35,385 nt of DNA, taken from positions 1 through 35,385 of IMG/VR virus record IMGVR_UViG_3300036797_000127, one strand, 5' to 3'. Positions 1 to 33,768 of this stretch are shown piece after piece. Each line of letters opens with the position of its first letter. Positions within the stretch are counted from its first letter, which is position 1. The notes beneath the pieces are model-generated. The model was not told where the DNA came from. It ran no database searches and saw only the letters and a list, made by a program, of their open reading frames with translations. Source of the stretch: a virus (lineage: Duplodnaviria > Caudoviricetes). The position numbers and the translations under genes are program-made.

Positions 1-867
1 ATGTTCCGCGAGCTCGCGGCCGCGGCGATGGACCACAAGAAACTTCGCCTGGCGGCCCGATCCTACGAAACCGACAAACAAAGATTGTCACGAATCTTGC
101 CACGCATCGGCGGCGTCCCTGCAGACGGCGTAACGAACGACCAGGTGGAAGACCTGCTCGCAGGCCTCCGCCATGAAGGGCTCTGCGGCTCCACGGCAAA
201 CCGTTACCGTTCGCTTCTCGGATCGATCTACAACTACGGCGTGCGCACCGGCCGCGTGCGTGCAAATCCCGTGCTACGCGTGAAACGGTTCAGGGAGAAC
301 GAGCATCGGGTGCGATGGCTCCGCGCCGAAGAAGAGAACGCGCTCCGTGAAGTGATCCGCGCGAATTGTCCGGATCACGAACCGGAGCTCGACCTCGCGC
401 TGTACACCGGCATGCGCCGAGGCGAACAATTCACATTGAAGTGGAAGGACGTCGATCTCGAGCGCGGGATCCTTACAGTGCACGGAAAAACCGGACGCAG
501 ATTTATAATTGCGAACTCTTCGGCGAAGTCTGCGATCGAGAAGCTTGCGCTAAAAAGAGAGACCGGCGAGAACTATGTCTGCAGGGATGCGACGGCGGAC
601 ACACAGAGGGATTGGCGGCGGTGGCTTGAGAACGCGGCGAAGAAGGCCGGCGTCGAGGACTTTCACTGGCACGATCTGCGTCACACATTCGCTTCGCGCC
701 TGGTCATGGCCGGCGTCGATCTGCGAACCGTCCAGGAGCTCCTCGGCCACAAGTCGATCCTGATGACTATGCGTTACGCGCACCTCTCGCCGGACCACCG
801 CCAGGCGGCGGCAGAGAAGATCGGAGGGATCAGTGGATCAACAACACACATGCTTAAAGAGGCGTGA
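1..867 (+). CDS. int: Tyrosine recombinase / phage integrase (may be 5'-truncated at the window edge)
   Basis: TGMRRGE (catalytic R), HDLRHTFASRL (HxxR) and LLGH...MTMRYAHL (H, Y) motifs. Confidence 0.95.
   Translation: MFRELAAAAMDHKKLRLAARSYETDKQRLSRILPRIGGVPADGVTNDQVEDLLAGLRHEGLCGSTANRYRSLLGSIYNYGVRTGRVRANPVLRVKRFRENEHRVRWLRAEEENALREVIRANCPDHEPELDLALYTGMRRGEQFTLKWKDVDLERGILTVHGKTGRRFIIANSSAKSAIEKLALKRETGENYVCRDATADTQRDWRRWLENAAKKAGVEDFHWHDLRHTFASRLVMAGVDLRTVQELLGHKSILMTMRYAHLSPDHRQAAAEKIGGISGSTTHMLKEA
802..829 (+). repeat. 28-bp direct repeat, copy 1 (integrase codons QAAAEKIG)
   Basis: caggcggcggcagagaagatcggaggga; 26/28 identical to 1133-1160. Confidence 0.9.
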
Positions 868-7026: not shown

Positions 7027-10000
7027 TTAAACTGCGGCAGCTCCGGCGAATCCTCGGCCTACTTGCGCCGATAGCTGATAAACCTTGATCGAGACGGAGG
7101 CCTGCGGTGATCCGAAATCGGTTGTCTGGTCCGCGGCGCTGTAGCTCGCCGTCGGCGAGCTCGCGGCGATCGTGCGCACCACGGTCGAGCCGTTCAGAAT
7201 GTCGACGCTGTAGGCTTCGCTCGATTCACTCAGCGGAACGGGATCCTGCGAAAGATTCATCCAGCCGACGCGCGTGCGGCGAACCCACGCGATCGTCAGG
7301 TTGTGGCTTCCATCGCGAGTTCCGGCCATGTGCACTGGCGCGTACGGTTTCAGATCATTTCCCGCGATCGTGAAATTCTGCGGCGAGACGAGCGTTGGAT
7401 CCGCTCCGGCCGTAACGCCTTTTTTGTAGTGAAGCTGCCCGACGATCGAGAGCGGGTCCTGAATTCTCTGCACGCCTGTACCTGGCACGGTCGCCTGCTC
7501 GCCTACTGCATGCGTGCCGCAGGCCCATTCCGTTCCGCGTCTCCCGCGCAGAAGCCCGGAAAGCGTCCACGACCCGTCTGCGTTGTGCACGGCCGTCGTG
7601 AATTGGATGAGCTCACTTCCAATGATTACCGCGTTCGATCCGTTTAGGACATTGGCCGGCGTGTCGCCCGCGAAGGTGCCGCGAATAAGTTGGATTGTGA
7701 CAGTGTTGACGTTGTCCCAGATCCAGGGAGATCGCGCCGGCGGACCGAGCACGGTGGTCGCATAACCGAACGTCACTGGCCGACTTGAGGTCGATTCCTG
7801 CAGGAAGTTCACGTCGTCCGTCGAATCCAAGAGCGCGCCGCCGTTCCAGGTGGGCGAGGGAGAGCTAAGAGCATAATAAAATCCCGTGTTCTGCGGGTTG
7901 CTGTCCACGTCGCGCAGAAGCGGAATATCGAAAAGGAAAAGTAACGTGGGCGCGAGGGTTTGTACGGCATTGTTGGGAAGCCCAAGACCTGCGCCGCCGG
8001 TGGCAGCGGAATTGAAGACCTCGGAGAATTCGCTTACTCCCTGCAGGGCAACGGCGCGGCCCTGGCCGATGGAGTTTTCCGCGACGCGCATCTGAAAGGC
8101 CAGCGTTTCATAGTCGAAGCCGATCACGTCGGTGGGATCGAGAAGCAGATAACTCGCGCGCCAGAGATTCGTTTTATAAGAACTGCGCTCAAGCCAGGAC
8201 AAATACAGCGCCTTAACCGCCACTTGCCGCGCCCAGTCCGAGGTCATCGTCATGGGAATTTCGAGAATTGTCTGCTGCTTCGTTTTTACGATGCGGACGT
8301 TGCGGCCCTTGAGCTGTTTATTCTGTTGGAAGTCCAGCGTGGGATCGTTGTGCGTCACCGTGAATTGCTTCGGCAGGTCCTGCTCCTGTGCGATCTGCTC
8401 CTCGAGCTTGGCCATGTCGGAGAGAAGTCCAAGGTCGGCCTCCGGAATTGTGAGAGCTGCAGGCAATCCGCGCGGAACGAATTTCATGGTGCCGTTTGTT
8501 TCGCAGGCGTCGAAGAAATACGCGTGCATCAGCACTTCCAGAATCTTCGCGGCCGGCGTCGGATGGTCGATGAGATAACCGGGCACGAGATTCGTCGGCG
8601 TGAGCGGAGTCTGGATATTCACCGGAGCGCAGAGCGTATTGTCAATTTGCGGATCGGTGAGCCCAGCGCGCTCGCAAATGTCGTGCAGCACGTCAGGCTT
8701 CGGCGTGACAGCCGTTGGGGGAAGCGTCGCCGGTGGTTTGAATGTCGCCCAGCACCCCGCGCCACCGTCCCCGAAATTGTCGAAATAGAACGACCAACTG
8801 TCGCTCACGTTAAATCCGCCACCGCCCACCGGATAGGCGCCAGGGAGAGCTCCAAAAGCGGATACGAAAATGCGCGTTCCTGCTCCCGTGGAGGCGCCGA
8901 CCGGCGTATTCAGTGTGATTTGCACGGCGGGCGGCTCCGTTAGCGGGTTATCTCCAATGATTGCGTTCGGCTGTGAATATGCGGCCGCGAAACATGCCGC
9001 CAGAAAATCTCCTGGCTGGCTAGAATGGCCAGAGGTGGAACTCCCAGTCGAACCCTCCAGATCGTCCGTCCATGCGCCGCCGTAGTCGGGAACCCACGTT
9101 CCAGGAAGAACGTAAATTTCGTAGCTGACGCTGGCGCCGGCCGCCACAGTGATCGTGTTGGCGCCAGCCGAAGCGTGGGCATACAGGATCTGAACCGAAG
9201 AATTTTCACGGCCCAGCGGTCCGCTGGATACGACACTGTTGTAAACATTTCCCTGACTGTCCGAGACGGAGATCGCTCCGCCTCCGCCGGCATAGCCCGC
9301 GGGAACTCCCACCGTGATGACAATCGTGTCTCCGGAGTTCAGCGGCGCGAGTGGAATGGTCGCGGGCGACGTGCTGGCCGCCGCGAGCACCTGCGTCGGC
9401 ACGCCATAGTTCGAGAGAAGATTTGTGGTCCGGGTATAGGTAATCTCGGCGCGGAAGCTGGGAATGCGATCGGCGAAATTGCCAAGCCACAAGTTATCCC
9501 AGACGCAGTAGTTCAATCCGCGAAATGCAGGCGTGAGCGCCTCAGTTTCCGACGCCTGAATCAGCGAATCTGGAAGCTGCGCCTCGTCTCCTGGATAAAA
9601 TGTCGGCGGGGGATAAAGTTGTTGAAGCGGAATCCAATATAGCGCCGTATAGCTGCCATTCGGACCATTCACCGTAAAAGTTTGATTGGAAGCCGGATTA
9701 ATCGCCCCTACGGTCCCATTGTTCGTCGCGTTTTGCGCAATGTACAGGACCCCGTTGAAGCTCACAATATCCCCTGAAAGATATTCCGTGTTAACGTCCC
9801 AGGGCGGATAGATGCTGATGATCTCCCAATTCCTGTTGGACTGGCTGGGAGCAGAGTTTGTATTCGTGGCGATGCACTGCCACACCTGCCCAGCGAAGTT
9901 TACTTGGTTCCCCGGATTGTAAAGCTCCGTCGAACTCCATGCGGGCCAGTCGCTGACGGGCGAGGTGTTCGTGCCACCGGGATTCGCATCGTAAATCAGC

Positions 10001-10350
10001 TTGGAATCCGCCCATATGCGAGTGATGACACCTGGACCCTCGCCGAACGAAACGGCCAAGCTCGCGGTAAATACGTAAGACCCTTTTGGCCCATAATCGA
10101 CGCCGCTAAATAATCTGCTGAGGGCCTGCTTCTTACCTCCGGCGCTATAAGTAATTCCAGTAGTCCAGATCACGTTCCCGGCCACGCGGCAGGTTCCGTA
10201 CCCGAATGGAATCGGCGCGCCGTTCGTGCCCGTCATCACCTGCAGATCACGCAGCGGAGGCAGCGGCGTCTTCGGACGGTTCAGTAGCCGATAGATCATC
10301 AGGCCGACGTCGAAGGCGGCCTGCACGGCAACGATTGCGATCAGCGCCAT
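7027..10350 (-). CDS. Central tail-tip / host-specificity protein (RcGTA g15 megatron-like, Phage-tail_3)
   Basis: GAPIPFGYGTCRVAGNVIW, PAFRGLNYCVW...FADRIPSFRAEI, LSGLLRGRRGTE, WVRRTR; internal CBM5/12-like repeats. Confidence 0.88.
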   Translation of the reverse strand: MALIAIVAVQAAFDVGLMIYRLLNRPKTPLPPLRDLQVMTGTNGAPIPFGYGTCRVAGNVIWTTGITYSAGGKKQALSRLFSGVDYGPKGSYVFTASLAVSFGEGPGVITRIWADSKLIYDANPGGTNTSPVSDWPAWSSTELYNPGNQVNFAGQVWQCIATNTNSAPSQSNRNWEIISIYPPWDVNTEYLSGDIVSFNGVLYIAQNATNNGTVGAINPASNQTFTVNGPNGSYTALYWIPLQQLYPPPTFYPGDEAQLPDSLIQASETEALTPAFRGLNYCVWDNLWLGNFADRIPSFRAEITYTRTTNLLSNYGVPTQVLAAASTSPATIPLAPLNSGDTIVITVGVPAGYAGGGGAISVSDSQGNVYNSVVSSGPLGRENSSVQILYAHASAGANTITVAAGASVSYEIYVLPGTWVPDYGGAWTDDLEGSTGSSTSGHSSQPGDFLAACFAAAYSQPNAIIGDNPLTEPPAVQITLNTPVGASTGAGTRIFVSAFGALPGAYPVGGGGFNVSDSWSFYFDNFGDGGAGCWATFKPPATLPPTAVTPKPDVLHDICERAGLTDPQIDNTLCAPVNIQTPLTPTNLVPGYLIDHPTPAAKILEVLMHAYFFDACETNGTMKFVPRGLPAALTIPEADLGLLSDMAKLEEQIAQEQDLPKQFTVTHNDPTLDFQQNKQLKGRNVRIVKTKQQTILEIPMTMTSDWARQVAVKALYLSWLERSSYKTNLWRASYLLLDPTDVIGFDYETLAFQMRVAENSIGQGRAVALQGVSEFSEVFNSAATGGAGLGLPNNAVQTLAPTLLFLFDIPLLRDVDSNPQNTGFYYALSSPSPTWNGGALLDSTDDVNFLQESTSSRPVTFGYATTVLGPPARSPWIWDNVNTVTIQLIRGTFAGDTPANVLNGSNAVIIGSELIQFTTAVHNADGSWTLSGLLRGRRGTEWACGTHAVGEQATVPGTGVQRIQDPLSIVGQLHYKKGVTAGADPTLVSPQNFTIAGNDLKPYAPVHMAGTRDGSHNLTIAWVRRTRVGWMNLSQDPVPLSESSEAYSVDILNGSTVVRTIAASSPTASYSAADQTTDFGSPQASVSIKVYQLSAQVGRGFAGAAAV

Positions 10351-10842
10351 TTAGGAATCGACTCCCGGGTAAATGAACACGCCGGCGATCCGCGATCGCC
10401 AGCGCTCGTCGAGACGAACTTCCACAATCCTCCCTTGAATGGAACTTCTGAGGCGCACGGGATACGGGAAAATCAGGCCGAGGCCGTCTCCCTGCGGAAA
10501 ATCGCTGACGATCCCGCAATGAGAAATCGAGTTCGGCGCGCGCAGCCCGAGAACATCGCCGGGCTTTGGCGCTTCGCCCTCGGCCCGCTGAAGGAGACGC
10601 GCGCGGCAGCCCTCGTGAATCAATTCCTGATGCGGCTGCGGGCCTATGTCCATGTAATCGGTCCTCAGAATGGGGATCCCGAACATGTCCACAAGCCCGA
10701 GATCCTCGCCGACGCACACGAGGAGCCCCGCGCAGTCGATCTCCGCGCTGCGGCCGCCGCCAGGGCGTCCGCGCCCCTGGTGGCGAAAGGCCATGCCCAC
10801 GTACTCGCGCGCCTTCGCTACAATTTGATTTCTAGCCGGCAT
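10351..10842 (-). CDS. NlpC/P60 tail-tip peptidase
   Basis: AREYVGMAFRHQGR...IDCAGLL...PGDVL...HCGI; position between hub and megatron. Confidence 0.9.
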   Translation of the reverse strand: MPARNQIVAKAREYVGMAFRHQGRGRPGGGRSAEIDCAGLLVCVGEDLGLVDMFGIPILRTDYMDIGPQPHQELIHEGCRARLLQRAEGEAPKPGDVLGLRAPNSISHCGIVSDFPQGDGLGLIFPYPVRLRSSIQGRIVEVRLDERWRSRIAGVFIYPGVDS

Positions 10843-11761
10843 TGGGATAGTTGAGAATTGCGTCCATTCCAGGGATGAACGGTTCACCGCGAAAATTCAC
10901 AGTGTTGTTGTACTTCTGATGGCAGTCATAGATGGTGTGATTGCAGCCCGGCTCAATCGTGAACGTGTCGCTCGCCGCCGGCAGCACCTGCCCGAGCGGA
11001 AGGAAGAGAACAAGCGTCGTGCCGTCCCAGCTTTTGATTTCCACACTCACTCCATTCAACGCGCCGCTCGTGAACGTGAGAATGCCGTCGTCGAACCATC
11101 CGACGGGCGCCGGCGCGGTCGGGGTTGCGGATCCGACTTGCAGAAGTCCAGAGGCCGGCACAATCGTGAATTGGTTCGTCACACTCGACATGGATCCCGA
11201 CTGGCGATATGTGGTCACATCAATCTTGCAGAGCCAGGTGGAAAGCATGTCGATGCCGTTGAGGCCCGAGCCGAACTGCGCCCGACAAATCGGCCCGTAG
11301 CTGTCGCCGAGGACCGTTCCAAAACGATAGGCAAGCCCGCGATGTTCCGCCGTCCACATTCCGTTTTTCAGCTTGACGACGCCGAGCGTGCCCGTGCGGA
11401 TGAGCACATGGCCCATGGTGAGATCGTTCCAGTTGACGACCATTAGCGAAACGAGCGCGTCATCATATTTGTTTTCGCGCAGGTCCTGCTCAGTGATGGC
11501 AGAGGAATCGATGAAGCCCTTCACTTCCGTGTTGTCGACGCTCACATCGCTTTTTCCTGCGATTGCCGAGGTGCTGTAGCCGGTTTTGGAGAGGTAAGTG
11601 ATGGAGCCGTCGCCAGAGCTGTCGTCGTAGGCGATGTCCACGTCGTGCGAGCTAAATCCCAGGAGCGTCCCGTCGGCTCGCTTTACTTTCCAAATCCAGG
11701 CGAGCGTGGTGGGATTGGCCGTAGCGAGGTGGGCCTGCATTGCGGTCGAAGCGATTTTCAT
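10832..11761 (-). CDS. Baseplate hub, DUF2163 / Phage_BR0599 (GTA g13-like)
   Basis: W.VKRADG..LGFSSHD; CRAQFG...C; GCNHTIYDCHQKYNNTVNFRGEPFIPG; ATGA overlap at 11758-11761. Confidence 0.92.
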   Translation of the reverse strand: MKIASTAMQAHLATANPTTLAWIWKVKRADGTLLGFSSHDVDIAYDDSSGDGSITYLSKTGYSTSAIAGKSDVSVDNTEVKGFIDSSAITEQDLRENKYDDALVSLMVVNWNDLTMGHVLIRTGTLGVVKLKNGMWTAEHRGLAYRFGTVLGDSYGPICRAQFGSGLNGIDMLSTWLCKIDVTTYRQSGSMSSVTNQFTIVPASGLLQVGSATPTAPAPVGWFDDGILTFTSGALNGVSVEIKSWDGTTLVLFLPLGQVLPAASDTFTIEPGCNHTIYDCHQKYNNTVNFRGEPFIPGMDAILNYPNAG

Positions 11762-12276
11762 TGTTGGACGTAGGACATTGAATAATTCTGCACTGGAGAG
11801 GTCCCGCCATCTTTGTAGCAAATGGCGTTTGCAGAAGGGACAACGAACTGCGGACTGGTGAATGGATAAACAGCGCTTGCTGAAGTGGTCCAAGCGCCTA
11901 GGAATGCCGTTTGTCCGGAAGCGCAGTTCGTGCCGGTTCCATAAACCAGCGAGAAGGTCGGCGAAGTTCCACTGACGCCATCGATGTTAACCGAGCAAAC
12001 GAAAATACTCTTGCCGCTCACAAGGCCCACAATTTGCACTGCCGAGGTTCCCGAGGTTACCCCGGCGACGGAAGCAAGCGTTGCTGCGGGATTTGTGCAT
12101 GGATTTCCGCCAGATGCTTGCGTGACACGCTGCGTTCCGCCGTCAACCGCTCCCGCATTCATCGAAACAGCGGTTCCTCCAAACTGAGACACGTTGACGG
12201 AGGACGGCTGAGATACATTCAATTGCGGCAGCGCAGCGAACAGTGCAATTGCCGCGAAGGATAGAAATGCTCGCAT
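11758..12276 (-). CDS. Signal-peptide-bearing beta-rich protein
   Basis: MRAFLSFAAIALFAALPQ; beta-sandwich-like body with four Cys; translationally coupled on both sides. Confidence 0.8.
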   Translation of the reverse strand: MRAFLSFAAIALFAALPQLNVSQPSSVNVSQFGGTAVSMNAGAVDGGTQRVTQASGGNPCTNPAATLASVAGVTSGTSAVQIVGLVSGKSIFVCSVNIDGVSGTSPTFSLVYGTGTNCASGQTAFLGAWTTSASAVYPFTSPQFVVPSANAICYKDGGTSPVQNYSMSYVQQ

Positions 12277-12942
12277 CTATTGCAGTCCGTTAATTTCGAG
12301 ATTGATGGCGCTTGCCGTGCCCGCAATCGCCGTAATTCCCGACGTGAATGTCACTCCGTCGATCGGTATACGGACGTTTGAATTTGCCGGAATGGAGAAA
12401 TCTGCATTGCCGCCCAGCCAGATGACGGGTGTTCCAGCCTTATCCGCCAGCCGAAGGGTAACGGCAGAATTAGTAATATTGTTCGCATAGGCGAACGTAA
12501 CGCATGTCGTAGTGCTGGTGACAGTGGTACCAGTGGTGGTTGCAACTTGAGAAGTTGCGCTGGAGAAGTTGGTTGATTGCGTGCAGGAAGATGGAACAGC
12601 GCGCACGATTCCGATATTTGCCGTTCCGCCAACAATACCTTCGGTCCAAGTCCCGCTTTCGGTCACCGGAAGCGAAGCATTGTCCGCGGTGACGTGGATC
12701 GTGCGGGCGGAAGTATCGCCGGTCGGCATAGAATGTCCCGAGCCGTCATTTGGAGTAACGAGCCAAGGGGTTGTGTTCGGCGTGTTCCCAGGCTGAACGG
12801 TCCATGCGCCGCTTTGGGTTACCGCCCCTCCGCCAGCGCCATTGGATTGTTGCATCTGAGCGAGTGGTGGACGAGCAAAGATCATTCCCAGTGTCACGAG
12901 GGCCAAGAAAGCCAAACCGATTCGAAGTGTGTTCTTTTTCAC
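12277..12942 (-). CDS. Signal-peptide-bearing fibre/spike-like protein
   Basis: GTG with AAGGAG; MKKNTLRIGLAFLALVTLGMIFARPPLA|Q; VTQSGAWTV / VTESGTWT repeats; C-terminal GVTFTSGIT. Confidence 0.8.
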   Translation of the reverse strand: MKKNTLRIGLAFLALVTLGMIFARPPLAQMQQSNGAGGGAVTQSGAWTVQPGNTPNTTPWLVTPNDGSGHSMPTGDTSARTIHVTADNASLPVTESGTWTEGIVGGTANIGIVRAVPSSCTQSTNFSSATSQVATTTGTTVTSTTTCVTFAYANNITNSAVTLRLADKAGTPVIWLGGNADFSIPANSNVRIPIDGVTFTSGITAIAGTASAINLEINGLQ

Positions 12943-12953
12943 AAATCTCCTTT

Positions 12954-13250
12954 TTACAGAATGAATTCAACAATCGCCGTCGCGGTGGCTGAAACCGACT
13001 TGAGATAGGTCACCGCGTCGCCTTCTTCGTATCGCGGGGACGATCTTCCGTGCGGGACCGCAATTAGAGCGTATGGACCATTCATCTGGTAGCAGGTCTG
13101 ATCATTTTCCATGTCGGAACAGCGAAGCATCGGACTGCCATCAATGGTGCCGATGATTCCAAAATAACTGCACGATGCCGGCGCTTCGATCGGAGTCCAA
13201 TTGGCTGAAGTCAGGGCGAATGTACGAATATATGGGTGACATTCAGACAT
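12954..13250 (-). CDS. Hypothetical small virion-region protein
   Basis: 98-aa beta-rich ORF directly after Dit. Confidence 0.7.
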   Translation of the reverse strand: MSECHPYIRTFALTSANWTPIEAPASCSYFGIIGTIDGSPMLRCSDMENDQTCYQMNGPYALIAVPHGRSSPRYEEGDAVTYLKSVSATATAIVEFIL

Positions 13251-13258
13251 TTTTGCCC

Positions 13259-13912
13259 TCAGTAATTCGGCGGACGCGTTTCCATTAGAACGACGCCGTG
13301 GATCCCCACGACTGGCTGCCCCGAACCTACGGCCGATTCCATGACTTCGATCGGTAGTTCGTCCGTGTCAAAGCGCACCGGATAGTGAAATTGGAAATCG
13401 ACAGCCGTTCCGGCGCTTTGTCCCGTCACGATTCCGGTCGTGTAATCCACCGTGACCGGCGTTGTCGTGCCATGCAGAAAAACTGTGTTCGCGAGGGCGT
13501 TGCCCTGGTAGTCGAGTACGGAGGAAGTGATCGGCTTTGTGATCACGCGCTGATACGTGCGGCCGCCAATCACATAATTTTTCACGAGCTGGACGTTCCC
13601 GTTCACCGTGGCCAGAGCTTGGTTTATGCCCTTGTAATCCAGATGATCCTTCAGACGGAACGAATCGGCCTTGCCGCCGACCACGAGATGGAAGGAGTGC
13701 AGAATATCGACCCATGATTGTCGCGTGCCGGAAAATTGCGCCACGGAAGGAGTTTCGAGGGATACGGTCCACTTGCCGCGCGAGTTCGACCAGTTGCGGT
13801 TGCGCTGCTCCTGGCCGGAGAGGCCTTCGTTCACCTGCGTCGAAAATCCGGAAGGACTGCCGAGCCGGTGATAACCGATGCCGCGCGGAAACTCGACTTC
13901 AAAGAAGGACAT
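13259..13912 (-). CDS. Distal tail protein, DUF2460 (GTA g12-like)
   Basis: MSFFEVEFP...SGQEQRNRNWS...FRLKDHLDY...FHYPVRFDTD. Confidence 0.92.
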   Translation of the reverse strand: MSFFEVEFPRGIGYHRLGSPSGFSTQVNEGLSGQEQRNRNWSNSRGKWTVSLETPSVAQFSGTRQSWVDILHSFHLVVGGKADSFRLKDHLDYKGINQALATVNGNVQLVKNYVIGGRTYQRVITKPITSSVLDYQGNALANTVFLHGTTTPVTVDYTTGIVTGQSAGTAVDFQFHYPVRFDTDELPIEVMESAVGSGQPVVGIHGVVLMETRPPNY

Positions 13913-13922
13913 AGGCTAAAAT
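13893..13922 (+). promoter_or_regulatory. Candidate sigma70-type promoter for a leaderless antisense gene
   Basis: TCGACT(13893)-18-TAAAAT(13917); ATG 13929 lies 6 nt after the -10 box. Confidence 0.5.
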
Positions 13923-13928
13923 AACTCC

Positions 13929-14153
13929 ATGCTGCGACGTCACTTTATTAAGTTGCTCCCTTTTCTTCCGATGGTCGGATCTAAGCTGAGCAACACAGTT
14001 GATCCGCGACGCGTTGACGAGAACTTGAATTTTCATGGTGAGCCGTTCATTCCTCTTATGGATGCGGTCATGGATTACCCAACTCGCTATAAAATTGGTG
14101 ACGAAGTGAGTGGTCTTGACGGGCAAATTCGAAAAGTTATCGAAACTAATTAG
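13929..14153 (+). CDS. Antisense 74-aa moron containing a baseplate-hub C-terminal mimic
   Basis: Fills the TMP-Dit gap on the opposite strand; NFHGEPFIPLMDAVMDYP versus hub NFRGEPFIPGMDAILNYP. Confidence 0.75.
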   Translation: MLRRHFIKLLPFLPMVGSKLSNTVDPRRVDENLNFHGEPFIPLMDAVMDYPTRYKIGDEVSGLDGQIRKVIETN

Positions 14154-17100
14154 CCTCTCGCCCTGGCAAGTTCCATTTGCGCATGCAGCCCCGCATAGAT
14201 TTGGCTCTGCGAGCGCCGGAAGCTGTCGTGATCCGAAACGCCGTGCACATGGAAGTTGACCGTCGTTTCCCTCGCGCCACCGCCGCCAGGCGATGAGGAC
14301 GACGGTGAAGCGGAACGCGCTGCGCGGCCGATAAAGACCTCTGGATGGTTCTCGCCAACGACGTAGGAATGGCCGGGGGTTACGTCGCCGCCCGCGGCGC
14401 GGAATCCGTCAAAGGCCTGTCCGACGCCCGCCAGTGGATTATTTTCCTGCGAGGATTTCATCAATGAAAATGAGGGAATGATCGTTCCTGAACTTTTTGG
14501 CACGAACAGTTCCGGGCCTTTTTCACCAACGATGTATGCGCTGCCGTGATCCGCAGGTCCGCCCGAAGCGCGGAATCCGGCGAATATATTGAAAATATCG
14601 GAAAACAATCCTCCACCAGACCCAGGGTCGCTTGAATCTCCTCCGCCTCCCCCTCCGCCAAACAAACCGCCCAGCATGGAAAGTAGTCCGCCGCCTGATG
14701 TCGATCCGCTCGAATCTCCTCGACTGGAATCGCTAGACGTTCCTCCGAACAGGCCGTCTAACGTCGAAAGAAGGCCGCTCCCACCGCTCGAATCCGACTC
14801 TGGACTGAGTAGGGACATAAGTCCGGTCGAAGATTTCCCCGAACCGAAACCAGGACCGAGAGGAAGATTCCCGGTGAGATCGCCGAGAATGCCACCGCCG
14901 CTGTTATCGGTGGCCGCGCCGAAAACAGAAGATCCAGCCGTCGCCGTCAGAACATATATGGGATCGTTTGATGATCCGGTCGGAGCCGACCCGCCTCCGC
15001 CTGTTTTTATGCCGAATACTTTGGCAATCGAACCGATGATTCCGCCGGGGCCAGAGCTTGTCGTGTTACCAGGGGAAAGGAAGGGCGGAGTCGTCGCTGT
15101 TCCGGGAGCACCCAGTATCGAACCGTACGAACGGCCGCTACCGAATCCCGGACCGAGCGGAAGTTTTCCAGCTCCCACTTCCTGCACGAAGAGCGGGTTG
15201 CCGGACGATTCACCGCGCTTTCCTTCAAGGCCAGGAATCTTGATGCCGATGGCTTTCTCAAGCGAGCCGGCTGCCGATTGAAGTTGAATCTTGATCATCG
15301 ACTCCGCGAAGCCCTCGAACATCTGCTTGAAGTTCGATTTCCCGGTGACGATCAGCTTCGCGATATTGTCTTCGACTCCGCCAATCGCTTTGTTCATGGC
15401 GTCGGCGATTTTTCCGCCAACATCCTCCGCATCGAGCGCGACCTGGTTGAGAACCGCGTGCATCTGTTCGCCGAACGAGCCGACCTTGATAGCCGCCTGG
15501 TCCCATTGCTCGATTTGCTGGCGCTGCGCGTCGTAAATCGCTGCGTCGATGAGAAGCGTCGAGGCTCCCTCCGACTGGATCAGCTCGCGGACCTGTTCAA
15601 GTTTCTGAATCCGATTGTTGTATGCAGCGGCGATGTCGTATTGCGCGGCTTCTTGAGCGATGGCGGTTGCGTACGCTTGATTGCTTTGCGTGCGGAGCGC
15701 TTCATTCTCCGCGTTAATTTGTTCCACGGATGCGCCCGGGTGCGCCTGTGTCCAGCGGTAAAGTTCCAGCGCGACCTGCGCGGCACGCACGGCCTGCTCA
15801 TTTTCGAGATAGGCGTGATTCAGGGCTTCGACGAGCGGAGTCGCACCTTGTAATTCTGCGGCCTGTTTGTTGAGTTCGGCGTCGATTCCCAAATCGCGAA
15901 GCGTGGCCGCCTGCGTTTTCAGAGCGCTGAATTTCTCCGTCGCCGCATCAATCGCTGCGGAGAGTTGCGAGAGGGCTGGAGACGGTCCCTGTCCTTGCTC
16001 CTTGCCGACAATGCCGATTCCAGGAATCGCCTGAAGCCGCGCGTATTCATCGCGCAGGTCGTCGATCTTGTCTTTTTCGGCTGCGAGTTGCTTGTCGATT
16101 TCGGCGGAGGCGACGGCCGCGGGACCTTTGCCGTACGAGGCCGAAACTTCAGTCAGGGAAGCGATTTGCTTGTCGAAGTCGTCGGATTTCTTCTGAAGCT
16201 CATCGCTCGTCGAGCTGCTGGCCTTCGCAGCGGCAATTTGCGCATAGAGTTTTGTGAACTGCGGAGCGGCAGCATCGAGCGCCGCCAGTTCCTTGCGGAC
16301 ACCAGCGATGCGCGCAGAGATCCTTGCAGATTCTTCGCCCGTCGAGGTCGAAAGCTGCTCCTGTAGCGATTTCTGCTCCGTGAGCAGCCCGTTGCGAACG
16401 TCCTGAACTTTCTGCGCAGCTTCGGCGGCCGCCTTCTGGAACATCATGGCCGCCGTGGTGCGGTCCATCGCTCCGGCGAGCGAAAGCTCTGCGGTCGCTT
16501 GGGCCTGCAACTTCGCAAGGTCTTCGCCAACTACGTCCTTGGTCGATACACCCAGCCCTTTGCTTTTTGTGGCCGTGTCAATATTAGCAGAGCCCTGCCT
16601 GTGGACTGGAACCATCCATCCAGTTCGATCGCCAGGGCTTGTATTTTTTACAAACGCGGCAAAGTCTGACCATATTCCCTTAGAGCTCTGAACGTCATCC
16701 TTGAGGCTGGAGGTCCATTTCGAGGAATAAGTTTTTAGTCCTTCGGCGAATCCTTTAAAGTTTACAGTTAGCAACGCACGGGATAGATCATTCGCCAATT
16801 CGACGATGTATTCCAGTTGGGCGCCAAATCCAACAAGCGCGATCGCCGCTTGGTTTACGGCCGTCCAGATTGCGTCCAGCGGAACGGCGATCATTCTCGT
16901 CAGTTCAGCAATAGCGTGCGCCCATTTGTTTGCTCCTTCCGCGCTGGATTCAAAAGAACTGGTTATGGCGCTCAGAAGCGGGAGTAAGTCGCGCGCGAGC
17001 GTCAGTGCAAATCCGTTGGCGATAGCATCGAGCTCCCCGAGTTTTAGAGAGAACTGATGGGCAGCTTGCGCCGTTTCTCCGTTTACGACTATTCCGAATC

Positions 17101-17857
17101 GCGCAGCCGACGCCATCATTCCGTCAATTCCGGCTTTTCCAAGATTCAAGGCCGGAAGCAGCGCCGCGCCGTTGCGTCCAAACAGCTCAATCGCCAAGGC
17201 TGTCTTCGCTACTCCATCCGGCATAGATGCGAACTTGCCAGCGATGTCTGCAAAGATTGCTTCGGTTGATCGAATCTGTCCGCTTGAATCCCTTACCGCA
17301 ATTCCGAGGCGCGTGTAAGCGTTGATGGCTCCAGCCGGAGCCGTCGCCGCCGCGAACGCGCTTTTGCTCATTTTTTCCAAGCCGCGAGCCATTGTCTCTT
17401 GATCGACGCCGACTTGCCTTGCCGCAAATCCAAGGCCGCTAAGAGCTTCGGTACTGACGCCAGTGCTCTGCGCCAGTTCGTAGAGCTTCTCTGCCGACTG
17501 GGCCGCATGAACAGCAACTCCAATGGTTGCGACTTCTATCGACGCGATGGCAGCGGTAGCTCCAGCCCCAAGCGACGCGATTGCCCCGAGAGCCGATTTG
17601 GTCGATCCGAATTCCTTCATCGCGGACGACGCAGCTCGCCCCATTGTGGAAAGAGCAAAACTCAACTGGCTAATGGCTGGATTGAAAGAACCGAATGCCC
17701 CGAAGGTTTGCGAGGCTATGCGTTGGAGAGAGGAAAATTCCTTGGAGATATTTTTTGCGGATTGCTGTGCGGTATACGCAGCTTTGGAAAGAGCGTCGAC
17801 GAACTTCGCTGTGTTGGCGTTCAGTTCGACGTAAATGCTGCCGAGGGACTGAGGCAT
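14150..17857 (-). CDS. Tape measure protein
   Basis: 1235 aa, Ala-rich helical; LGSIYVELNANTAKF N-terminus; C-terminal GFRASGG...YIVGEKGPELFVP motif. Confidence 0.93.
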   Translation of the reverse strand: MPQSLGSIYVELNANTAKFVDALSKAAYTAQQSAKNISKEFSSLQRIASQTFGAFGSFNPAISQLSFALSTMGRAASSAMKEFGSTKSALGAIASLGAGATAAIASIEVATIGVAVHAAQSAEKLYELAQSTGVSTEALSGLGFAARQVGVDQETMARGLEKMSKSAFAAATAPAGAINAYTRLGIAVRDSSGQIRSTEAIFADIAGKFASMPDGVAKTALAIELFGRNGAALLPALNLGKAGIDGMMASAARFGIVVNGETAQAAHQFSLKLGELDAIANGFALTLARDLLPLLSAITSSFESSAEGANKWAHAIAELTRMIAVPLDAIWTAVNQAAIALVGFGAQLEYIVELANDLSRALLTVNFKGFAEGLKTYSSKWTSSLKDDVQSSKGIWSDFAAFVKNTSPGDRTGWMVPVHRQGSANIDTATKSKGLGVSTKDVVGEDLAKLQAQATAELSLAGAMDRTTAAMMFQKAAAEAAQKVQDVRNGLLTEQKSLQEQLSTSTGEESARISARIAGVRKELAALDAAAPQFTKLYAQIAAAKASSSTSDELQKKSDDFDKQIASLTEVSASYGKGPAAVASAEIDKQLAAEKDKIDDLRDEYARLQAIPGIGIVGKEQGQGPSPALSQLSAAIDAATEKFSALKTQAATLRDLGIDAELNKQAAELQGATPLVEALNHAYLENEQAVRAAQVALELYRWTQAHPGASVEQINAENEALRTQSNQAYATAIAQEAAQYDIAAAYNNRIQKLEQVRELIQSEGASTLLIDAAIYDAQRQQIEQWDQAAIKVGSFGEQMHAVLNQVALDAEDVGGKIADAMNKAIGGVEDNIAKLIVTGKSNFKQMFEGFAESMIKIQLQSAAGSLEKAIGIKIPGLEGKRGESSGNPLFVQEVGAGKLPLGPGFGSGRSYGSILGAPGTATTPPFLSPGNTTSSGPGGIIGSIAKVFGIKTGGGGSAPTGSSNDPIYVLTATAGSSVFGAATDNSGGGILGDLTGNLPLGPGFGSGKSSTGLMSLLSPESDSSGGSGLLSTLDGLFGGTSSDSSRGDSSGSTSGGGLLSMLGGLFGGGGGGGDSSDPGSGGGLFSDIFNIFAGFRASGGPADHGSAYIVGEKGPELFVPKSSGTIIPSFSLMKSSQENNPLAGVGQAFDGFRAAGGDVTPGHSYVVGENHPEVFIGRAARSASPSSSSPGGGGARETTVNFHVHGVSDHDSFRRSQSQIYAGLHAQMELARARG

Positions 17858-31980: not shown

Positions 31981-33768
31981 CTACCCTAAAAAGAGCCAGT
32001 CGCTCGCTTTCGCGATTCCAGGCTTTGGATATTCCACAAACCCAGCCGTGCGCAGCGCGCCCAAAGGATTTGAAAATGCGCCGCCGCGCTCTGAGTAACC
32101 AGCGCGATCGGCGAGCTCCAGCTTTGACAGTTCGCATCCAGCTTCCAGCAAAACAGAAAGAATCTTCCGTTCCGGACCGCGCAGAATCGCCAGAATGCGC
32201 CGGTGAATCTCTTCCTGATCCGGCGCAGGCTCAACTCCTGCCGTTGTGGTCCCTTCCTCTGTGAGTTTCACTCGGCCGCCGCCGGGATATTCAATCAATC
32301 CCATGCTCCGCAACGCGCCAAGAGGATTGCTAAACGCGCCGCCGTTCGGCGAATATCCGGCCCACGCAGCAACCATCTCGCGCGGCGGTTCGTGTTTGTC
32401 GATCGACGCGAGCTCGGCCAGCGCTTTCAGAATTTTCTTGTGCGGGCCGCCCAGATCGCCATTCATTTCGGCGTCGCCAGGTTGTTTTGATAGCATCGGA
32501 CGTGGATGTTGGGGTTGTGGTGAAAACGCCGTACCCCGCTCAGGGCTTCGTCGATCACCTAACGTTTGAAGGCTTTCTCCTTTTTGGATTTCCACGCCCG
32601 AAACTTTTGCGTTCAATATTTTCAAAGCCGCGCGAACGCCGCGTTCCCGATCGAGAGCGAGAAAGCCGGAACCAGAGTTGACGGCCTCATGAACGATCCC
32701 GCGCCACTTATCGCCGCGTTGTGCAACCATTTCCATGAAGGGTTGCAACGCTGCATTTAACTCTCTAATTCCAATCTCGCGTTTGACGGATTTTGCATTC
32801 GTTGGCTGCACTTTCTGCACCGGAGCGCTGCGCAATTGCGCCTTAAGAGATCGAATCTCTGTGCGCAGCTCCGTTTCCGTCTTGGCCTTTTCCTCCGCAG
32901 CTTTGGGCAAATCGGCCAGCTTGGGCAGGAGCTTCGCGATCTCTTCCGGCGCCGGCGGCGGCTCGGACGCATGCTTCGAACTCCCCGCTTCCGGATGCGA
33001 CGTCTCGACCGCGCCAACTTTAAGCAGAATTCGCTCGTCCGCGATCGCAGGTCCCAGCGCATAAAAGCTGCCGCGCTCGAGGAGTTTAATTTCATCGAAA
33101 AACTTATGCTGCTCCGTGCCGTAAACTCCAAGGGCGTCCGCAGCGCGCTTTCGATCGATGTCAATGAACGTGCCGCCAATCATCACATTCAGCATTTCCG
33201 CCGCGGCATCCTTGCGAAACTTTCCAAGCCGCTGAGTCGCTGCTACCAGGCAGAATCCTCGCTTGCGGCCGCGTGTCGCCATGCCGATGACAGATTCCGA
33301 GGCGAGCGATTCGCCGGCGCCCTTTTCCGGGCAAAATACGTGGGCCTCGTCGAGCATAATGATGCAGGGATGCCAGAGGTTTTTCGGGGCGTCGATCATG
33401 GCCTCGAAAAACTTCTGCACCCATTCATGCCGTGACGACGGCTTCATTTCGTACAAATCGCACACGGCCGGCGCGCGCAGCTCCAGTAGCTTATGCGCTA
33501 CAAGAGCAGCCGAGCGAGGATCGGCAGGAGTCTCGCCGCCTTTACCCACGAGCACATAGCCAAATTTCTCGCGTAGACTCGCAAATTCGCCTTCCGGATC
33601 GAGAATGATCACCTGGACTTTGCCGAAGAGCTGCTCCGCCAGTCGGCGCAAGAGCCACGATTTTCCCTTTCCGCTATTCGCCTGGATCAGCAAACGCGTG
33701 CGCAGCAAGACATCAAGGTCGAGCGAGATTTTTTTGCCGTCAGATTCGCCGATCAGTATTTTGCTCAT
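31981..33768 (-). CDS. HerA/FtsK-superfamily ATPase (DUF87-like) with two C-terminal winged-helix repeats
   Basis: QANSGKGKS (Walker A), ILDPEGEF, IMLDEAH (Walker B), RGRKRG, ATQR; duplicated AGYS..GGAFSNPLGALR..G..EYP. Confidence 0.88.
   Translation of the reverse strand: MSKILIGESDGKKISLDLDVLLRTRLLIQANSGKGKSWLLRRLAEQLFGKVQVIILDPEGEFASLREKFGYVLVGKGGETPADPRSAALVAHKLLELRAPAVCDLYEMKPSSRHEWVQKFFEAMIDAPKNLWHPCIIMLDEAHVFCPEKGAGESLASESVIGMATRGRKRGFCLVAATQRLGKFRKDAAAEMLNVMIGGTFIDIDRKRAADALGVYGTEQHKFFDEIKLLERGSFYALGPAIADERILLKVGAVETSHPEAGSSKHASEPPPAPEEIAKLLPKLADLPKAAEEKAKTETELRTEIRSLKAQLRSAPVQKVQPTNAKSVKREIGIRELNAALQPFMEMVAQRGDKWRGIVHEAVNSGSGFLALDRERGVRAALKILNAKVSGVEIQKGESLQTLGDRRSPERGTAFSPQPQHPRPMLSKQPGDAEMNGDLGGPHKKILKALAELASIDKHEPPREMVAAWAGYSPNGGAFSNPLGALRSMGLIEYPGGGRVKLTEEGTTTAGVEPAPDQEEIHRRILAILRGPERKILSVLLEAGCELSKLELADRAGYSERGGAFSNPLGALRTAGFVEYPKPGIAKASDWLFLG

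Follow-up and report, generated by a model that had tools for sequence, protein, structure and literature searches.

Introduction

Does a small reading frame that runs against the late operon of a phage, and that resembles the C-terminus of this phage's own baseplate hub, encode an inhibitor of tail assembly, or is it a captured scrap of a structural gene? The question is raised by the viral record IMGVR_UViG_3300036797_000127, of which the window, i.e., the whole stretch of DNA analyzed here, comprises 35,385 nt. In an initial annotation made from the DNA alone, the frame, located between the genes of the tape measure and of the distal tail protein (Dit), was proposed to encode a microprotein that a lysogen would use as a decoy against the tail assembly of related phages. 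The sequence features described there were reproduced without exception. What emerges from the present analysis is a statistically solid oddity, namely a singleton for which a decoy role is plausible but unproven.

The phage and its tail genes

The 35-kb viral contig belongs to a siphophage with a GTA-type tail tip, whose gene set, including an NlpC/P60 gene besides those of the tape measure, Dit, hub and megatron, lies entirely on the minus strand (Table 1). The presence of a tyrosine integrase suggests that the phage is temperate. Five sequence runs are tied to the record, all of them soil metagenomes. Regarding the host, the best match of the hub in a named genome is found in an Acidobacteriota MAG (44% identity), while an Acidobacteriaceae MAG and many Alphaproteobacteria share 36–40% identity with it, and we tentatively consider the host to be acidobacterial.

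Between Dit and the hub, three minus-strand genes (172, 221 and 98 aa; window 11758-13250) were found, two of them with signal-peptide-like N-termini. A comparison with 410 loci gave no relative for any of the three, and family searches gave no convincing match; the 98-aa gene is an antidote candidate by position only, and nothing ties it to the antisense frame. Elsewhere in the contig, a 28-nt direct repeat (93% identical; 802-829 and 1133-1160) is present at the integrase end and close to the end of an ORF of 114 aa (833-1177) with a weak AbiEii match (E 0.0014). Upstream of the terminase region, a minus-strand gene (31981-33768) encodes a 595-aa HerA/DUF87-like ATPase and contains an internal 61-nt repeat (32027-32086 and 32285-32344). 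Finally, the right end of the contig (35266-35372), detected through its matches to 17333-17353, carries short repeats with a spacing of ~24 nt, which are possibly origin iterons or a coding repeat.

Table 1. Position and basis of the features of the window considered in this study.
Feature	Position	Strand	Basis or remark
Tyrosine integrase, cut by window edge	1..867	+	Family hits
Megatron-like protein	7027..10350	-	N-terminal domain, about residues 1-310
Baseplate hub (TIGR02218)	10832..11761	-	PF09931, PF09356 and TIGR02218 above cut-off; clip at 10844-10897
Distal tail protein Dit (DUF2460)	13259..13912	-	Family hits
Sigma70-like promoter match TCGACT-18-TAAAAT	13893..13922	+	Consensus match only; -35 inside Dit coding start
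Dit ribosome-binding region, GGAG and T-rich spacer	13913..13928	-	Same bases, on the other strand, are the -10 box and start of the antisense ORF
Insert, 237 nt, 45% GC vs about 57% around	13913..14149		Gap comparison with relatives
Antisense ORF, 74 aa, ATG start	13929..14153	+	Antisense to late operon; fills tape-measure/Dit insert
ORF N-terminus with twin-arginine-like RRHFIK	13929..13982	+	LPFLPMVG may resemble hub segment upstream of Cys pair
18-codon copy of hub clip domain	14028..14081	+	Equivalent to RcGTA hub 266-283
Tape measure protein	14150..17857	-	Annotation and family hits

An insert in the late operon

Among the 23 loci with a Dit identity of at least 50%, the gap between tape measure and Dit is of 4 nt or less in 20, the other three having gaps of 67, 108 and 331 nt. 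Across 135 distinct loci, defined by a Dit start and a long upstream ORF and including the window, the gap does not exceed 30 nt in 95, ranges from 31 to 100 nt in 18 and is longer than 100 nt in 22. The starts of the ORF and of Dit are 16 nt apart, and the stop of the ORF shares 2 nt with that of the tape measure; the ORF fills the gap against the late operon, as had been described. It is a phage moron in the sense of an extra gene missing at the same site in relatives. As for the composition and signals of morons, its GC content is 45% and a promoter-like site is present by consensus match; no terminator-like site was found for it.

The ORF is present in contigs of three runs from three studies (X1, X2 and X3). 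Since one contig of X1, which may be the source of the record, spans the ORF, while X3 contains an identical piece (13933-14233) and X2 a piece with one change (13943-14110), the insert is not an assembly artefact. The sole variant, C>T at 13986 (depth 2.2), changes no residue on either strand and is uninformative. At the insert, neither a target-site repeat nor a terminal inverted repeat was found, nor any sign of a structured RNA (z -0.13; no Rfam match). On the minus strand, a 75-codon shadow frame with a TTG start (13899-14126) is placed in exact antiparallel register to the ORF and shows no recognizable ribosome-binding site.

A copy of the hub clip domain

The codons of the ORF at 14028-14081 read NFHGEPFIPLMDAVMDYP, versus NFRGEPFIPGMDAILNYP at the hub C-terminus (10844-10897, minus strand). 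As noted in the initial annotation, 13 of the 18 residues are identical, six of them with different codons; at the DNA level 37 of the 54 nt agree, the mismatches being distributed 4/2/11 over the three codon positions. In a tblastn search within the window, the match has an E value of 6e-7 (next match 0.18), and, with all window proteins searched against the window, this match is the only off-diagonal one. An HMM of 184 hub tails recovers the ORF clip with 32.2 bits and an E value of 2.5e-7 (5.77 M six-frame residues searched). By these sequence statistics, the match is not a chance event.

The peptide follows the hub C-terminal clip motif NFxGEPxxPGxD....YP except that Leu replaces the Gly. 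In an unbiased scan, a Gly follows EPFxP in 118 of 120 motif matches (120 of about 440 stretches), and Leu occupies this site in two of 166 hub tails; the Gly to Leu exchange needs at least two base changes. All the other most conserved positions of the hub tail are kept, and the His at position 3 and the Asp before YP are both found in real hubs of the same clade. The Leu may weaken clip binding, which counts against a decoy.

When the window hub is aligned to RcGTA gp13, the NFRG...YP stretch corresponds to residues 266-283. In the RcGTA hub, two ion-binding segments (143-167 and 250-263) precede a clip domain formed by residues 264-296 (PMC7296036). The copy begins at residue 265-266 of the RcGTA hub, i.e., at the edge of the clip, and does not include the Fe-S cysteines of the ion-binding segment. 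The copied stretch, described at the outset as the hub C-terminus, can hence be named more precisely as the clip domain.

Two loci carry hubs (L147:3501-3528 and L171:2492-2519) that have lost one or both C-terminal cysteines and kept the NFRGEP clip, which suggests that the clip works without the Fe-S cluster. In another hub (L128:3501, on the same contig as L020), the frame runs 216 residues past the start of the clip motif instead of ending ~20 later.

Probable partner of the clip

Several structures bear on what the clip touches. The metal-binding upper baseplate protein of phage JBD30, whose equivalence to this hub type is taken from the same report, has its C-terminus buried, enclosed by two domains I of the large hub protein (PMC11445458). 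In both lambda and RcGTA, the hub's C-terminal part and the N-terminal part of gpJ or megatron together form the HDII-insertion domain (PMC10721106). Based on these contacts, the likely partner of the clip is the megatron N-terminal domain (about residues 1-310), which in many relatives is a separate gene of about 300 aa. By contrast, Dit, which the initial annotation had also considered as partner, is unlikely in this role as RcGTA Dit binds the hub attachment domain (PMC7296036). In the R4C hub the clip is not resolved (PMC10276861), and an AlphaFold model of the hub is uninformative, the clip region having a pLDDT below 50.

Of note, the split of the megatron, with its 300 or so N-terminal residues in an ORF of their own, is found among others in L189, L257, L254 and L179; in the window, this part is fused and the megatron contains a unique insert of about 240 aa.

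Origin of the copy and codon pattern

From the six synonymous codons it had been argued that the copy does not stem from a recent duplication and that selection acts on the peptide. The first part stands. In simulations of neutral drift of a copy of the own-hub clip, at least 13 residues were kept after 17 random changes in 0.04% of the trials, and in at most 0.04% under a two-lineage model; neutral decay from the phage's own hub is thereby rejected as the origin of the copy (P about 4e-4). The second part does not follow. The synonymous difference between the ORF clip and the own hub (6 of 12 codons) compares with a mean of 0.56 when the own hub is set against 45 other hubs. A fragment of a foreign hub, P0003, is closer to the ORF clip (14/18 residues) than the own hub. 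Among 242 hub tails the best donor shares at most 38 of 54 nt, the ORF clip being about equally distant from all hubs of the clade. As far as these distances indicate, the clip was captured within this phage group, from a hub gene that probably belonged to another phage; such a capture would explain the codon pattern, and selection on the peptide is not needed.

These observations lead to a different view of the locus, in which the ORF is a young ORFan, expressed and derived in part from a fragment captured from a foreign hub gene, the clip being a passenger and the product having little or unrelated function. The near-equal distance to the clade hubs, the closer match to P0003 and the loss of the conserved Gly all agree with it. 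However, the copy begins where a structural domain begins and, apart from this Gly, retains all the most conserved positions, and its GC3 (0.44) matches that of the rest of the ORF (0.45) and not that of the hub gene (0.73; 0.50 for the own hub tail). On balance we consider this explanation somewhat unlikely, although the frame, the promoter-like site and the singleton status described below are in its favor.

Another possibility is that the locus is a non-functional relic, namely an inverted scrap of the 3' end of another phage's hub, in which the open frame and the -10 box would be coincidental or by-products of the Dit ribosome-binding site. The extent of the hub likeness is then of particular interest. 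Upstream of the clip (residues 10-33), block tests corrected for searching gave p values of 0.0005-0.06 and an anchored profile alignment gave 0.005-0.02 with lenient gaps, a separate comparison having used hand-picked motifs; this weak and test-dependent likeness hints at a longer, decayed fragment. Against this, the likeness is gone with ordinary gap costs (p 0.2-1.0) and in a BLOSUM test (p 0.23-0.34), and the DNA flanking the ORF shows no significant likeness to the junction of the own hub and NlpC genes (p 0.49 and 0.16). An origin of the ORF C-terminus from the NlpC N-terminus was likewise not supported (p 0.41-0.49).

Evidence for a gene

With the flanks shuffled, a gap-filling frame, defined by an ATG at least 30 codons upstream of the clip and at least 22 open codons downstream, arose in 108 of 20,000 trials with ATG and in 323 of 20,000 with any start (0.5-1.6%). 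A TAAAAT box lies at 13917-13922, 6 nt before the ATG as first reported, its first T being 12 nt before the start, i.e., at the leaderless position. Within the window, a -10-like hexamer stands 5-7 nt before two of 949 ATGs, one of them that of the ORF (local null 0.012). Together with the -35-like TCGACT, the box matches the consensus at 9 of 12 positions, for which regional shuffles give 0.5 such sites. Frame and promoter tests are both post hoc, having been chosen once the sequence was known.

As the frame spans the gap and its -10 box stands at the leaderless distance, we regard the ORF as probably a real gene on sequence grounds, and its appearance is that of a genuine antisense moron. 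It is to be noted that leaderless genes represent on average 13% in three genomes of Acidobacteria (PMC3160421). The relic explanation, against which the rarity of both the frame and the box speaks, is accordingly unlikely in our opinion, even if it draws some support from the codon adaptation index of the ORF (0.62), which equals that of the antisense shadow frame, most structural genes being at about 0.7-0.8, and from the lack of homologues. The -10 box doubles as the T-rich spacer of Dit, and the major tail gene has a comparable spacer in front of it.

Searches for homologues and stand-alone clips

No homologue of the ORF was found at any scale. Among 5.8 billion proteins, a search at near length retrieved only the ORF itself and none of 23 candidates among longer proteins was a homologue; among 1.84 billion representatives it again matched itself only, and there was no homologue in 50,697 phage records (best E 3) or in the PDB. 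Comparison with Atlas features gave nothing at 0.9 or above, and PADLOC, NCBIfam and PHROG families gave no match, a Pfam match to DUF6812 being sub-cut-off only. One match among the viral loci (L001) proved to be a chance match in an unrelated 280-aa protein.

Stand-alone clips were equally absent. An HMM scan of loci L001-L401, which include 135 distinct hub tails with at least 3 kb of upstream DNA, revealed no second full clip, and no gap locus has a clip copy. Among the 18 candidates retrieved with a clip-only profile from proteins of up to 130 aa, only the ORF itself and four hub fragments with cysteines carried it. The general motif pattern, in the 120 of about 440 stretches of viral contigs considered, retrieved 119 hubs and one large unrelated protein. 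A pattern without the Gly matched 21 viral and 29 metagenome loci, of which five short non-hub matches were discarded, as they stop after 9-12 motif residues and have no adjacent hub, Dit or megatron. A His-variant pattern matched seven loci (four hubs and three chance matches). For the likely host phylum and class, two overlapping samples of 401 genomes yielded no stand-alone clip, the one clip match being the end of a 403-aa hub-like frame. Exact motif patterns of this type miss diverged copies.

The ORF is a singleton, with no homologue and no stand-alone clip in any search. The lack of small frames keeping the NF.GEP motif, designated beforehand as an argument against the decoy proposal, was indeed observed, in a lineage that is thinly sampled, as the Dit or hub identity to the nearest phages is no more than 66-67%.

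Possible roles of the encoded peptide

We tentatively propose that the ORF could be a leaderless moron of the Tab and Tai type, blocking the tail-tip assembly of rivals through clip mimicry. In its complete form, the proposal is that a temperate phage has excised the clip domain from a baseplate-hub gene and produces it unattached, as an antisense microprotein acting as dominant-negative decoy, which would plug the megatron and poison the tail-tip assembly of relatives; this is possible and somewhat more doubtful. The ORF would be transcribed from the prophage, in the lysogen, as a leaderless gene, and its product would occupy the clip site on the megatron N-terminal domain of related incoming phages, whose tail-tip assembly would then stall. 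In the phage's own lytic cycle, convergent late transcription would damp the ORF, as reported for TaiEcA.

The decoy reading is favored by the start of the copy at the clip-domain boundary and the omission of the Cys segment, by the buried JBD30 C-terminus and the domain shared by hub and megatron in lambda and RcGTA, by the low probability of neutral own-hub decay (P <=0.0004), and by the gap-filling frame, the -10-like box and the integrase. The layout of Tab and TaiEcA and the occurrence of leaderless genes in Acidobacteria, the tentative host group, point in the same direction. It is weakened by the singleton status, by a synonymous divergence equal to that between hubs, by the -10 box doubling as Dit spacer, by the poor codon usage and by the post hoc nature of the tests. 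Moreover, a free peptide must outcompete a tethered clip and would also hit the phage's own tail.

Instead, the peptide could be a decoy for counter-defence, expressed from the sigma70-like promoter early after infection, the free clip titrating a factor of the host or of a prophage by which the hub would be sensed or blocked, ahead of synthesis of the real hub. No self-silencing would be needed, and the own tail would be spared by a clip that the Gly to Leu exchange makes imperfect. In addition, Tab and Tai have phage antidotes, and there is a functional precedent in DSAD1, which competes with a tail tube protein for DSR2 (PMC11263360). Nevertheless, we judge this role quite unlikely: the literature consulted names no defence system targeting the hub clip, the clip is buried in the virion (PMC11445458), and the antisense-moron layout is that of Tab and Tai themselves and not that of their antidotes.

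A last scenario starts from the N-terminal RRHFIK of the ORF, which we take to be close to the twin-arginine consensus. A peptide exported by the Tat pathway could meet the opened tail tip in the periplasm and block DNA entry, resulting in superinfection exclusion. Several weak Atlas feature matches are Tat-signal proteins (scores 0.76-0.81), but these scores are within the range reached by shuffled proteins. Besides, there was no NCBIfam match at E up to 5 and no Tat-signal Pfam match at E up to 0.05, and the hydrophobic stretch is short and contains two prolines, so that we hold Tat export to be highly improbable.

Whatever its role, the case points to a genome-wide screen for small antisense ORFs whose products match the ends of structural proteins from the same phage. 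Were it functionless, the locus would still clearly illustrate how a new phage ORF takes shape around a captured domain.

Comparison with known systems

By membership tests on sequence, the ORF is not a Tab, Tai or hub family member. The likeness to prophage tail-assembly blockers, on which the decoy proposal had drawn, nonetheless holds for the layout. Tab, the product of gene 31 of Pseudomonas phage JBD26 (83 aa), is encoded on the minus strand with its own promoter inside the late operon (PMC10884400). Like the ORF, it is a small opposite-strand moron of the late operon, and it blocks the tail assembly of related phages; the orientation is thus the same, the promoter of the ORF being a consensus match only. 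Unlike the ORF, which copies a structural domain, Tab bears no resemblance to any known protein. Its target is the tape measure protein, its gene is placed between terminase genes, and it has homologues and an adjacent anti-Tab (PMC10884400). For the ORF, neither homologue nor antidote was identified. The ORF has no homology to Tab and is located between tape measure and Dit, not between the genes for small and large terminase.

TaiEcA of phi80 is likewise antisense and interrupts the late operon, a non-contiguous layout that the ORF fits, and it falls when Q is expressed (PMC11364771). Its target is in the tail tip, namely protein J, the megatron counterpart. It differs from the ORF by its size (26 kDa), its Ati antidote, its wide distribution and escape mutations in the C-terminal region of J, and the parts of this report consulted describe no mimicry of a tail protein (PMC11364771). 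The ORF is set apart from Tai by family and database searches, not by pairwise alignment with Tai sequences.

Regarding the hub itself, with RcGTA gp13 and the R4C hub as closest known systems (PMC7296036; PMC10276861), the 18 residues align inside the RcGTA clip. In contrast to the RcGTA hub, the ORF would provide a stand-alone clip without attachment, Fe-S and OB domains, with unrelated flanks and with His for Arg and Leu for Gly. Its assignment to the baseplate hub family (TIGR02218 or PF09931 and PF09356) was rejected, as it has no Cys and no family match.

Mimicry as such has precedents. P-FimU is a prophage defence using a look-alike of a structural component, but it copies a host pilus protein and blocks adsorption (PMC12952977). 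DSAD1 is a phage protein competing with a tail protein for a binding site; it differs in being a counter-defence acting on DSR2 and a folded protein, apparently not a peptide copy of the phage's own gene (PMC11263360). Decoy immunity is also known in restriction systems (bioRxiv 2023.04.06.535777). In the mostly open-access literature consulted, we saw no account of a phage that expresses part of its own tail protein anew to serve as an inhibitor.

In the accounts of Tab and Tai consulted, neither resembles a structural protein and direct target binding is not demonstrated. A clip decoy would, by comparison, give a mechanism readable from the sequence and a probe of the clip as a separable assembly module of GTA- and lambda-type tail tips. 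If true, it would represent a defence by mimicry of a conserved virion interface, hardly escapable by mutation of the target.
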